From Escherichia coli (GTDB taxonomy: Bacteria > Pseudomonadota > Gammaproteobacteria > Enterobacterales > Enterobacteriaceae), in NCBI RefSeq assembly GCF_013122565.1, contig NZ_CP053258.1: DNA of 64,000 bases; one strand, given 5' to 3'. Below the pieces are notes generated by a model. That model had not been told where the DNA came from. It saw only the letters and a program-made list of their open reading frames with translations, and ran no database searches. Shown piece by piece: positions 7,144 to 10,735 of this stretch. The first letter of the stretch is position 1; each line of letters opens with the position of its first letter. The position numbers and the translations under genes were made by a program.

Positions 7144-8394
7144 TTACATGTTTTCGATGATCGCGTCACCAAACTCTGAACATTTGAGCAGCTTAGCGCC
7201 TTCCATCAGACGTTCGAAGTCATAAGTTACGGTCTTCGCGTTGATTGCGCCTTCCATACCTTTAACAATCAGGTCTGCGGCTTCAGTCCAGCCCATATGG
7301 CGTAACATCATCTCTGCGGAGAGAATAATAGAGCCTGGGTTAACTTTGTCCTGACCGGCATATTTCGGCGCAGTACCGTGGGTGGCTTCAAACAGGGCGC
7401 ATTCGTCACCGATGTTTGCGCCAGGGGCGATACCAATACCACCAACCTGCGCTGCCAGGGCGTCAGAAATGTAGTCACCGTTCAGGTTCATACAGGCGAT
7501 AACGTCGTATTCAGCCGGACGTAGCAGGATCTGTTGCAGGAACGCATCAGCGATCACGTCTTTAATGACGATCTCTTTGCCGGTGTTCGGGTTTTTAACT
7601 TTCAGCCACGGGCCGCCGTCGATCAGTTCACCGCCAAACTCTTCACGCGCCAGCTGGTAGCCCCAGTCTTTAAACGCGCCTTCGGTGAACTTCATGATGT
7701 TACCTTTGTGCACCAGGGTCACAGAGTCACGATCGTTAGCAATTGCGTATTCGATCGCTGCACGAACCAGACGTTTGGTGCCTTCTTCCGAACACGGCTT
7801 AATACCGATACCGCAATGTTCCGGGAAACGAATTTTCTTCACGCCCATCTCTTCACGCAGGAATTTAATCACTTTCTCGGCGTCGGCAGAGTCAGCTTTC
7901 CATTCGATACCCGCATAAATGTCTTCCGAGTTTTCACGGAAGATAACCATATCGGTCAGTTCAGGGTGTTTAACCGGGCTTGGAGTGCCCTGATAGTAAC
8001 GTACCGGACGCAGGCAGATGTAGAGATCCAGTTCCTGACGCAGGGCAACGTTCAGAGAGCGAATACCGCCACCTACTGGAGTGGTCAGCGGGCCTTTAAT
8101 GGCAACGCGATATTCACGAATCAGATCAAGGGTTTCAGCAGGCAGCCAGACATCCTGACCATAAACCTGTGTGGATTTTTCACCGGTGTAAATTTCCATC
8201 CAGGAGATTTTACGCTCGCCTTTATAGGCTTTCTCGACTGCAGCGTCGACCACTTTCAGCATGGCTGGGGTTACATCTACACCGATTCCATCACCTTCAA
8301 TGTAAGGGATAATCGGATTTTCAGGAACGTTGAGTTTGCCGTTTTGCAGGGTGATCTTCTTGCCTTGTGCCGGAACAACTACTTTACTTTCCAT
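7144..8394 (-). CDS. icd: Isocitrate dehydrogenase (NADP), intact
   Basis: 416-aa [49 protein letters not shown]...[13 protein letters not shown]; full length with the native C-terminus. Confidence 0.97.
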
Positions 8395-8565
8395 TCACCT
8401 CTCCTTCGAGCGCTACTGGTTTGCTCGTCTGCCACCACGTTGCATATGCGTTTGCGTCCTGCGATACGGATGCTTTAGAGCAATTTTTTGTTAATGATTT
8501 GTAATTGGCTTGTCAATACTACCCTATTGTTTGCCGTCATGAAAGATGCGCGTTATTAGGCTATA

Positions 8566-8712
8566 ATGCGGCAATTCATAATCTCTGAAAATACCATGCA
8601 AAAAACTTCTTTTAGACCAAAGACAGTATTTTCCCGACCTTCAAATAAAGTATTAAATATCAATTATTTACACCAGACTTTAAGCAATAAAAAAACCACC
8701 AGAGATAACTAA
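8566..8712 (+). pseudogene. Detached canonical rluE start: first 17 codons of RluE (MRQFIISENTMQKTSFR) fused to unrelated sequence, ending after 48 codons
   Basis: Translation of 8566-8712 gives MRQFIISENTMQKTSFRPKTVFSRPSNKVLNINYLHQTLSNKKTTRDN; the first 17 residues match the RluE N-terminus as I recall it for K-12; a TATAAT hexamer overlaps the ATG. Confidence 0.5.
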
Positions 8713-8854
8713 CAGGGTGCTATTTGGTCAAAATTTGACATTACTCGATTCAGCGACTAACTCACTTTGAGCACTATTGGGAAAATTATCAAAAGTCATG
8801 GTTGAAGCGACAAGCAACGAGTAAATTATGGCATCCACCCTTTTTGAGGTTCAC

Positions 8855-8947
8855 ATGAAACGCTTTGCACTGATAGCTGTGACACTCATTGCCTTTACTG
8901 GTTCTAGTTCTGCATCTGCTGCAACCGAAGAAATCAACTTCAAGTAA
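8855..8947 (+). CDS. Mini-ORF (30 aa) with a signal-peptide-like sequence: MKRFALIAVTLIAFTGSSSASAATEEINFK
   Basis: GAGG Shine-Dalgarno 5 nt upstream of ATG; hydrophobic core plus ASA-A cleavage-like motif; in the same frame as the next ORF but separated by TAA and TGA stops. Confidence 0.35.
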   Translation: MKRFALIAVTLIAFTGSSSASAATEEINFK

Positions 8948-8980
8948 CAGAAACACTATATAACAATGGAGTGTTGAAAA

Positions 8981-9430
8981 ATGGATACTACCGAAGAACG
9001 CAATGGAACATATTTCTACAGAGGACACCCGAACCTGTCCAAAATAGAACTACTCAACGTCATATTCCTTGAAGAATTCTGTAAGGAATTGGGGATTGAT
9101 TCGGTATCAGGTGCAGCAATCTTATCTGGTCAACCTTGGCTGGGTACAAGAGCGAAGCCGGAAGGGGCAACCCTGGGAACAAGTGTTGTCTCAAAGTATG
9201 CGCGTATACTGATGAGAGATGCACGCATGCCTTTTGGTATTTCTGTTCATACAACAGTGGGTGTAAGGATGCAGAAATCTAATAAGCTTGCTGCAATTAT
9301 CGCTCGTTGGGTCCCGTGGATTGGTTGGGCTTCACTGTCGATGAGTCTTTACAGGATTTCGACTCGTACCCAGGAAAAATACAATCTGATTGCCAAACCT
9401 CAAGACCGTATTAAGTGGACTTCCTTCTAA
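8981..9430 (+). CDS. Hypothetical protein (149 aa), unknown function, with a hydrophobic C-proximal segment; first gene of a two-gene overlapping module
   Basis: ORF MDTTEERNGTYFYRGHPNLSKIELLNVIFLEEFCKELG...LAAIIARWVPWIGWASLSMSLY...; its stop overlaps the start of the next ORF (TAATG); no family recognised. Confidence 0.6.
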   Translation: MDTTEERNGTYFYRGHPNLSKIELLNVIFLEEFCKELGIDSVSGAAILSGQPWLGTRAKPEGATLGTSVVSKYARILMRDARMPFGISVHTTVGVRMQKSNKLAAIIARWVPWIGWASLSMSLYRISTRTQEKYNLIAKPQDRIKWTSF

Positions 9431-9765
9431 TGGCGACAACAATCACAGACGAAGTTTTAGCACTGTTCCGTGATGAGATTCCAGGTTATCAGGATGATCA
9501 CGGGAAGGAAATTCCGTTAGAACTGGACTCTGATTTGTTCGACTATCCACGAGATGATTTAGAGGACGCTATACGGAAATACAAAGAGAGGTTTGGGATT
9601 AACCTGGATAATCTGGAATGGTCTTTGTACCTTCCGTGGGAGTCTGCACCATTGCTTCAACGATGGTTCAAGCTCAAGCGGGAAGAGGTAGAAACAACAC
9701 GTTTACCGTTAACTGTACGGATGTTTGCAGAATCAGCAGAAGCGGGAAAATGGCTGTATCAGTAG
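9430..9765 (+). CDS. Hypothetical small acidic protein (about 111 aa); possible immunity or antitoxin-like partner of the upstream ORF
   Basis: ORF track 9415-9765; likely start at ATG 9430 overlapping the upstream stop; sequence MATTITDEVLALFRDEIPGYQDDHGKEIPLELDSDLFDYPRDDLEDAIRKYKERFGINL... is rich in Asp/Glu. Confidence 0.6.
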   Translation: MATTITDEVLALFRDEIPGYQDDHGKEIPLELDSDLFDYPRDDLEDAIRKYKERFGINLDNLEWSLYLPWESAPLLQRWFKLKREEVETTRLPLTVRMFAESAEAGKWLYQ

Positions 9766-9772
9766 AATAAAA

Positions 9773-9795
9773 AAGAAGGCTGCGATGCCCTTCTT
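9773..9795 (+). terminator. Candidate stem-loop terminator after the two-gene module
   Basis: aagaagg-ctgcgatgc-ccttctt hairpin 8 nt after the stop codon; the U-tract is weak. Confidence 0.35.
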
Positions 9796-10096
9796 ATTAC
9801 TGCTGATGATGGTAGTGGTAAAGCATCATCCTGAACTTAAACAGTGAAGTGCTGTCACCCATCAGTAATACAGAAACACTATTTTCATACCAGTATTTAT
9901 TCAATTCATCAATGTAAAATGTGTTCATTGGGCCATATTTATCACCATGCAGCCACACAACCGCTGCTCACTAACCCAGGTATTGATGAAACCGCGCTGA
10001 AGAGCCTGAACCCTGAACCTCTAACGAGTACCTTCAAAGTCCAATGCAATCCGACACTGTGCTAACCTCTGCGTATAGCTCTATTTGGAATTTACC

Positions 10097-10735
10097 ATGA
10101 AATACTTTAGCGATTCTAAATCTTCTTTTAGAAAAAAACAGGTTAGTCGACTAAACTCGCAACACACCACTAAGCGTAAACCTGAAAACCAGCCCACGCG
10201 TGTGATCCTGTTCAATAAACCCTACGATGTTCTTCCGCAGTTTACCGATGAAGCCGGGCGCAAAACATTAAAAGAATTCATCCCGGTTCAGGGCGTTTAT
10301 GCAGCAGGTCGTCTTGACCGCGATAGCGAAGGGTTACTGGTGCTGACCAATAACGGCGCGTTGCAGGCGCGTTTAACCCAGCCGGGCAAACGCACCGGAA
10401 AAATCTATTATGTGCAGGTGGAAGGTATTCCCACACAAGACGCACTTGAAGCCTTGCGCAATGGCGTAACCTTAAATGATGGCCCTACCCTGCCCGCAGG
10501 CGCGGAGCTGGTTGAAGAACCCGCGTGGTTATGGCCGCGGAATCCACCAATTCGTGAACGCAAAAGTATTCCCACCAGCTGGCTGAAGATCACCTTATAT
10601 GAAGGACGTAATCGCCAGGTGCGCCGCATGACCGCCCATGTTGGTTTCCCCACGCTGCGACTAATTCGCTATGCGATGGGTGATTACTCTTTGGATAATC
10701 TTGCCAATGGCGAATGGCGAGAAGTGACAGATTAA
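10097..10735 (+). CDS. rluE: 23S rRNA pseudouridine synthase RluE with a variant N-terminus
   Basis: ORF track 10085-10735 (TTG); likely ATG at 10097; from [23 protein letters not shown] onward matches RluE, but the first ~30 residues ([26 protein letters not shown]) differ from the canonical N-terminus encoded at 8566. Confidence 0.88.

Follow-up and report, generated by a model that had tools for sequence, protein, structure and literature searches.

A probable remnant of a large serine recombinase element with a predicted polymorphic toxin/immunity pair in the 5′ end of Escherichia coli rluE

In a 64-kb stretch of Escherichia coli DNA (NZ_CP053258.1; the whole of it is called the window here), the 5′ end of the housekeeping gene rluE contains a segment of about 1.5 kb, which we call the islet. 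An earlier note on this DNA had placed the islet between two copies of an 11-bp direct repeat, CTTCTTTTAGA, and had pointed to two overlapping genes inside it. Several questions are raised by this locus. How did the islet enter a housekeeping gene? How does rluE survive the event? What became of the recombinase? What are the two genes doing there? We consider it probable that the islet is the degraded remnant of an element of a large serine recombinase (LSR), that it carries a predicted polymorphic toxin/immunity cassette, and that the present start of rluE was supplied by the element.

On the plus strand rightward of icd, a 48-codon open reading frame (ORF), rluE (212 or 216 codons, depending on the start), nudJ, mnmA and hflD follow one another. 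The 48-aa ORF (8566-8712) begins with the N-terminus MRQFIISENTMQKTSFR, beyond which its likeness to RluE ends, and the body of RluE sits behind another N-terminus in an ORF running from 10085 or 10097 to 10735. The N-terminus encoded at 8566-8616 is the native one, common to RluE of K-12, Salmonella and Citrobacter. In the window CTTCTTTTAGA occurs exactly twice, at 8606 and 10122; the number expected was 0.03, and none of 100 shuffled sequences had two or more matches. Between the icd start codon and 8616, the K-12 derivative J53 does not differ from the window; beyond 8616 the two are unrelated, and when the comparison with K-12 is anchored at the second 11-mer, identity is about 64% over 10133-10174 and essentially complete from 10175. 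The islet is thus bounded by the repeat within the 5′ end of rluE as had been claimed, and the left boundary of the foreign DNA stands at 8616; the right boundary has to be revised, as divergence continues for 42 nt beyond the repeat.

Comparison with K-12 and a panel of E. coli genomes, which the earlier note had proposed, revealed a presence/absence polymorphism with breakpoints at the 11-mer: the islet is carried by 373 of 5,426 complete E. coli genomes, and the flanks are contiguous, with an uninterrupted rluE 5′ end, in 5,051. An arrangement shared by K-12 and nearly all E. coli, which would have meant that nothing had been inserted, is not what K-12 and these 5,051 genomes have. A cryptic Escherichia species, Escherichia sp. 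E1V33, has the islet at this site of rluE as well, and the repeat in a Citrobacter relative (L060) is longer, 16 nt (AAAACTTCTTTTAGAA). A query of 8400-10300 against the E. coli genomes also gave 11 matching places on plasmid-labelled records, and the islet interior alone matched one such record.

The likely agent of the insertion is found in relatives of E. coli. In a survey by full-length search, the RluE N-terminus MRQ[LF]I.SENTMQKTSFRNH[QR]V[KE]RFS was common to Salmonella, Citrobacter, Enterobacter and K-12, and the K-12 form is regarded as ancestral because it is shared in this way; a protein search with the 49-aa N-terminus alone was of no help, as it returned three fragments from E. 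coli. A small number of Citrobacter-type RluE proteins start with MRYYNDSKSSFR, MSNARKYSSDSKTSFR or MSNARKYYNDSKTSFR and have the native sequence directly after S-F-R, the same codons at which the junction lies in the window. In contig L066, which covers 4 kb of such an element, its full extent not being delimited, the N-terminus of rluE is replaced as far as S-F-R and native from there, and an intact LSR gene lies on the opposite strand with its start codon 40 nt from rluE. The 555-aa product has both the Resolvase and the Recombinase domain and matches the integrase family phrog_95 (E = 4.5e-64). In L060, L061 and L062, the LSR gene is a frameshifted stub of 66 codons (residues 1-66), cut by insertion sequences. 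L064 carries, between icd and rluE, a 120-aa signal-peptide ORF, hcp, a DUF8209 gene, a DUF1493 gene and a 20-codon LSR stub. Relatives with an intact or decaying LSR gene beside rluE, at the same S-F-R codons, agree well with the earlier claim that a site-specific insertion replaced the 5′ end of the gene.

Both ends of the islet are related to these elements: 8561-8881 is 75-76% identical to 6280-6596 of L060 and 7222-7542 of L064, and 9994-10194 is 80% identical to 9898-10098 of L064. An intact LSR gene with both domains is not present in the window; there is only a stub of about 20 codons, which reads TVSDCIGL, a stop, and then RYSLEVQGSGSS, corresponding to VSDCIGYLRYSSEVQGSGSLVQR in L064 and to MCVAIGYMRYSSKLQVAGSTIHRQ at the start of the intact L066 enzyme. 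Because the gene is only a stub, the window holds a remnant rather than a functional LSR element, and the earlier description of a remnant without its recombinase can now be extended by this stop-containing 5′ fragment. No relative of the L066 LSR gene was found at the nucleotide level in the 5,426 complete E. coli genomes, so that the islet would be immobile by its own means. When attP is reconstructed by joining the element-side halves of attL and attR, 14-16 of 25 positions are dyad-symmetric in three elements, and the centre of the dyad falls between CT and TC inside the repeat, as is expected for a serine-integrase site. The window thus has an 11-nt shared core, empty sites in other genomes and an attP dyad about the crossover, as expected of LSR elements. 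From these sequence comparisons, we place the islet, in decayed form, in a family of serine-recombinase elements targeting the S-F-R codons of rluE, where an LSR would have catalysed the integration.

What was lost from the islet can be read from L064. The signal-peptide mini-ORF of the earlier note does not stand as a separate gene; it is the cut-off beginning of the 120-aa gene present in Citrobacter elements. Homology to L064 picks up again just before the toxin gene, where 8961-9033 of the window corresponds to 9051-9123 of L064, and for L064 7930-9051, with hcp at 8571-9053, the window has no counterpart; for this reason we infer that hcp and the rest of the 120-aa ORF were removed by deletion. 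An hcp remnant at 8617-8700, apparent in a MAFFT alignment, was rejected, as sensitive tblastn and blastn searches gave only noise there. The cargo of these elements may itself have changed. L066 has at 188-2257 two ORFs, one of 358 aa without a family match and one of 311 aa belonging to phrog_21267 (function unknown), and L064 retains at 8150-8285, just upstream of hcp, a pseudogene trace of the 358-aa ORF, which suggests that the hcp cassette replaced an earlier cargo.

The islet can also be lost precisely. HS-02 (L068) has an uninterrupted rluE that retains the 42-nt patch following the repeat, and it shows no mismatch to the islet-bearing ECONIH1 over 1,472 and 2,400 nt (3,872 in all) of flanking sequence. 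Given this identity, what HS-02 has lost is the 1,516 bp between the repeats, no more and no less, which could have happened by slippage between the 11-mers or by a recombinase acting in trans, and for the same reason HS-02 was rejected as an example of the original attB. RluE of HS-02 after the loss (L068 6067-6720) is the native N-terminus fused to the patch. HS-02 also carries e14 beside icd, though its flanks are otherwise identical to those of the e14-free ECONIH1.

The cargo consists of two genes belonging to families already named by NCBI. The product of 8981-9430 matches the STM2901 family (NF045926) with 156.8 bits against a cut-off of 110 over profile positions 1-140, and that of 9430-9765 matches DUF1493 (PF07377) with E = 1.8e-29 over model positions 3-107 of 108. 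Among 49 loci from species other than E. coli, the gene immediately after the toxin gene is DUF1493 in 42, and a complete 160-aa hcp (TssD) lies within 60 nt upstream of the toxin gene in 26, with hcp remnants in three more; in Cronobacter a C-terminal hcp remnant is kept. The window itself has no trace of hcp. In L064, the order hcp, toxin, immunity is found inside the same icd-rluE element, and a small effector (149 aa) with an adjacent, co-oriented immunity gene has the size and layout of Hcp cargo. A profile search of 1.84 billion representative proteins yielded 553 relatives of the toxin domain, many of them at the C-terminal end of a longer protein. Among 30 longer homologues examined, 15 have an RHS-associated core or YD repeats N-terminal to the domain; these 15 match TIGR03696 at E ≤ 0.001, and 13 exceed its cut-off. 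On Bacteroidota-like contigs (L071-L074), DUF1493 again follows Rhs-type toxin genes. Because of the hcp linkage, the Rhs C-terminal fusions and the DUF1493 pairing across phyla, the pair is best read as a predicted polymorphic toxin with its immunity protein. As to which is which, the first gene would be the toxin and DUF1493 the immunity protein, since the first gene alone is hit by an IS3 element in IAI39, where DUF1493 is intact, and truncated or frameshifted variants of the toxin gene are common in E. coli. What had been described as a two-gene overlapping module of unknown function is indeed an overlapping pair, to which a polymorphic toxin/immunity function is assigned here. As a candidate undescribed accessory system the pair needs correction, since both protein families already have names at NCBI; no publication was found on this toxin/immunity family. 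Our literature searches found no functional description of DUF1493, STM2901 or DUF8209, and Rfam gave no match over 8300-10300.

Several loci of this kind are more elaborate. In L041 and L042 (Mangrovibacter), L023 and L029, there are several copies of hcp, toxin and DUF1493, in tandem or inverted, with extra DUF1493 fragments, and they resemble the orphan toxin/immunity arrays of polymorphic toxin loci. The insertion in IAI39 (L070 6332-8094) is an IS3-family element with a programmed frameshift, and rluE is intact there as well; the same genome has, at the icd 3′ end, a lambdoid prophage whose integrase is truncated. The toxin copy in the window has two private substitutions relative to PT62, ECONIH1 and E1V33, Q61E and P92T, the latter in a conserved T-P-V-G motif.

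Neither cargo protein has a signal peptide, and hence the toxin would be expected to act in the cytoplasm and to be neutralised there by binding. The toxin family has conserved motifs including GAT.GTS..SKY and GR..P..GW, and the structure model has a long hydrophobic C-terminal helix (103-137). The DUF1493 model has a fold like that of acyl carrier protein (ACP) without the carrier serine: helix II, which we located by hand, comparing the model with the E. coli AcpP sequence and not using a printed structural alignment, starts with P40-[R/G]41-D42-D43-L44 and has no DSL-type serine, and S34, in LDSDL, is variable (S, T, Y, F or D). DUF1493 therefore differs from acyl carrier proteins in having no phosphopantetheine site, and also in an extra β-hairpin and an extra long helix. 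A search of PDB sequences gave nothing for the toxin and noise only for DUF1493. If neutralisation works by imitation of the natural partner of the toxin, the target would be ACP itself or a step that depends on it. The idea that DUF1493 is an ACP mimic and that the toxin would act on ACP or an ACP-dependent step of fatty-acid, lipid A or phospholipid synthesis is a speculative one, to which we give a low probability. To our knowledge, no type VI or Rhs toxin with such a target is on record, and literature searches found nothing in functional or mechanistic terms on ACP-like immunity or on rluE with a serine recombinase.

How is rluE expressed in its new context? A terminator-like hairpin (9776-9791) directly follows the toxin/immunity pair, and because of it transcription of rluE would start within 9800-10096, where only a weak promoter match was seen by eye. 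The native promoter-like site at 8539-8567 now faces the islet and may transcribe the toxin/immunity pair. Its TATAAT, a -10-like sequence at 8562-8567, overlaps the annotated rluE ATG at 8566, and in Citrobacter the annotated start of RluE is often the second methionine (MQKTSFR; ATG at 8596 in the window). The second ATG may be the real start of RluE, and the integration site would then be codons 5-7. The 42-nt patch is present in every islet-bearing Escherichia and in HS-02, and absent from the Citrobacter elements and from every other RluE retrieved. It may be the mark of an unsampled intermediate host followed by homologous transfer, or of gene conversion. The features of the locus are collected in Table 1.

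Table 1. Features in and around the rluE islet (positions in the window).
Feature	Position	Strand	Basis or remark
icd	7144-8394	-	Left neighbour of the islet
Native rluE promoter-like site, ATGAAA-17-TATAAT	8539-8567	+	Consensus scan, 10/12 matches; sequence as in K-12; putative function
Displaced native rluE 5′ end (MRQFIISENTMQKTSFR), B arm of attL	8566-8616	+	Frame continues to a stop at 8712
Left 11-bp direct repeat (attL core)	8606-8616	+	Homology to the K-12 empty site stops at 8616
Left end of the element (P′ arm and leader)	8617-8881	+	Conserved in Citrobacter elements at the same site
Truncated ORF start, 30 codons, signal-peptide-like	8855-8947	+	120-aa ORF intact at L064 7516-7878 and L060 6574-6936
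STM2901-family/DUF8209 gene, 149 aa, predicted toxin	8981-9430	+	NF045926; PF26636 on homologues
DUF1493 gene, 111 aa, predicted immunity protein	9430-9765	+	PF07377; ATG shares 1 nt with the toxin stop codon
G+C-rich hairpin flanked left and right by T/A runs, terminator-like	9776-9791		Scan (reported on the minus strand) and sequence reading
Decayed LSR gene 5′ end, about 20 codons	9990-10060	-	In-frame stop; catalytic SS changed to SL
rluE with element-supplied start	10097-10735	+	Start annotated by NCBI in islet-bearing genomes
Right 11-bp direct repeat (attR core)	10122-10132	+	Second copy of CTTCTTTTAGA
42-nt rluE patch	10133-10174	+	15 positions differ from the ancestral sequence; stands in place of NHQVKRFSSQRSTR

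A further difference from K-12 lies on the far side of icd. Over the final 200 nt of the gene (7144-7343, its 3′ end), identity to K-12 is 0.87-0.94, as against 0.96-1.0 elsewhere, and beyond icd the window, like PT62 and ECONIH1, carries iraM/ycgX/bluR/bluF and not e14. In K-12, e14 is known to replace the 3′ end of icd, and this fits the drop in icd identity.

An outline of the most probable course of events is as follows: an LSR would have inserted a small integrative element at an attachment site formed by codons 15-17 (S-F-R) of the annotated rluE, and the right end of the element would have supplied a new start and N-terminus for RluE, so that the gene stayed intact. In the Escherichia lineage, decay would have left a short 5′ stub of the LSR gene, and hcp and the neighbouring genes would have been lost in an internal deletion, so that the two-gene cassette remained. 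The STM2901/DUF8209 protein would be a small toxin, which other genera may export by type VI secretion as Hcp cargo or as the C-terminal tip of an Rhs protein, and the DUF1493 protein would counteract it in the cytoplasm as its antidote, presumably by binding it directly. In this E. coli, where a cognate hcp is missing, the pair would most likely serve mainly as retained immunity against competitors firing this toxin, and the toxin gene would be under relaxed constraint.

Some observations weigh against this outline. The patch to the right of the repeat is not predicted by a simple serine-integrase crossover in the 11-mer. The LSR stub of the window matches at 8 of 20 residues, which is weak by itself and is supported by its position. 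Sensitive tblastn and blastn searches of the window for an hcp remnant gave scattered noise on both strands, and the cognate type of hcp has no close relative in any complete E. coli genome, the best having about 65% nucleotide identity. The toxin model is of moderate quality (pLDDT, the predicted local distance difference test score, 71) and has no informative structural neighbour. The ratio of non-synonymous to synonymous polymorphism (pN/pS) within Escherichia, 0.6-0.9 for the toxin and 0-0.4 for the immunity gene, is a contrast made by a handful of substitutions. Finally, no report of toxicity, neutralisation, Hcp binding or secretion was found in the literature for the toxin family.

Other explanations were weighed as well. 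The patch indicates that more than a core crossover took place, and no complete E. coli genome has a relative of the L066 LSR, so that one might think of foreign DNA entering through illegitimate recombination or recombination facilitated by homology, or else through a transposition that duplicated an 11-bp target; there would then be no LSR, and the 11-mer would be residual homology between rluE and its substitute. This is difficult to reconcile with the independent Citrobacter elements, which use the same junction codons and have native sequence right of the core, with an LSR gene or stub that always abuts the rluE junction, with the homology between the left ends of the window and Citrobacter elements, and with a reconstructed attP that is dyad-symmetric about the repeat, and we regard it as unlikely. 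Still less probable, and in our view hardly tenable, is the reverse history, in which the ancestor of Escherichia already had the islet and a deletion led to the common arrangement of K-12. It would account for the islet in a second Escherichia species (L011) and for a divergence of the islet among E. coli lineages (2.2%) close to that of the flanks (1.9-2.2%); however, the K-12-type SFRNHQVKRFS is the type shared with Salmonella, Citrobacter and Enterobacter, and the one deletion observed, in HS-02, leaves the patch and does not recreate the K-12 sequence.

As for the cargo, the pair might be a chromosomal toxin-antitoxin or anti-phage (abortive-infection) module acting inside the cell without any secretion, its proximity to hcp being due to shared insertion hot spots. 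The pair does persist without hcp, in E. coli, in Lelliottia and in 20 of the 49 loci, both proteins are without signal peptides, and the genes overlap as in type II toxin-antitoxin operons. In spite of this, an intracellular module seems improbable to us: in 26 of the 49 loci, drawn from many genera, a co-oriented hcp precedes the pair by 12-16 nt, a toxin domain C-terminal to an RHS core is the mark of an exported polymorphic toxin, and PADLOC gave no match for either cargo protein, which speaks against an anti-phage module. A secreted toxin with its immunity protein, on a decayed LSR element, is the reading that we prefer.

In Pseudomonas aeruginosa, Tse2-Tsi2 is a pair in which a cargo effector carried by Hcp1 is matched by a cytoplasmic immunity protein. 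Loading of Tse2 by Hcp1 is cited in PMC8262886. The pair described here is similar in that a small stand-alone toxin (149 aa) is encoded beside hcp in relatives and the next gene codes for an immunity protein that is small, acidic and helical and has no signal peptide; it differs in having no sequence or fold relation to Tse2-Tsi2 and in the loss of hcp from the window, and its binding to Hcp and its secretion are putative. Rhs/YD-repeat polymorphic toxins, with their C-terminal toxin domains and orphan arrays of toxin tips and immunity genes, provide another likeness, since the domain follows an RHS core in half of the longer homologues and is in turn followed by DUF1493, whereas the window protein is a bare toxin domain without an Rhs shell or PAAR. 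Mobile auxiliary modules of type VI secretion systems, consisting of hcp or vgrG with effector and immunity genes, have been catalogued in Vibrio parahaemolyticus (PMC9765294). Like these, the compact hcp-effector-immunity cassette is found at many unrelated chromosomal positions; unlike them, it rides in, or has been captured by, a serine-recombinase element, and the E. coli copy is reduced to effector and immunity genes.

Insertion within a gene has precedents among LSR elements, such as those with phiC31- or Bxb1-type integrases, SPbeta in spsM and the skin element in sigK, and e14 enters icd by means of a tyrosine integrase and carries a replacement for the 3′ end of the gene. With all of these the rluE islet shares a short att core in a coding sequence and a substitute gene end that keeps the host gene functional, and with the LSR elements also the position of the recombinase gene at the edge of the element. 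It is distinguished from e14 by its probable serine recombinase and by the replacement of a 5′ rather than a 3′ end. It is distinguished from the phage LSRs in that the L066 enzyme is only 26% identical to the nearest ones in a phage collection, which are YbcK-like recombinases, and in that the recombinase of the window is gone and the element fixed.

A family of serine-recombinase elements in Enterobacteriaceae is thus seen to have an attachment site in the rluE 5′ end, and the islet explains a recurrent presence/absence polymorphism within a housekeeping gene, found in about 7% of the E. coli sequenced. The pairing of the toxin with DUF1493 is conserved from Enterobacteriaceae to Bacteroidota, and the DUF8209/STM2901 and DUF1493 families gain a testable role as a toxin/immunity pair delivered with Hcp or on Rhs proteins, in which the carrier-protein-like fold of the predicted immunity protein offers a lead to the target of the toxin. 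For E. coli itself, the proposed role would mean that orphan immunity genes of this type can decide whether a strain survives against Citrobacter, Enterobacter and Klebsiella armed with type VI secretion systems in the gut.

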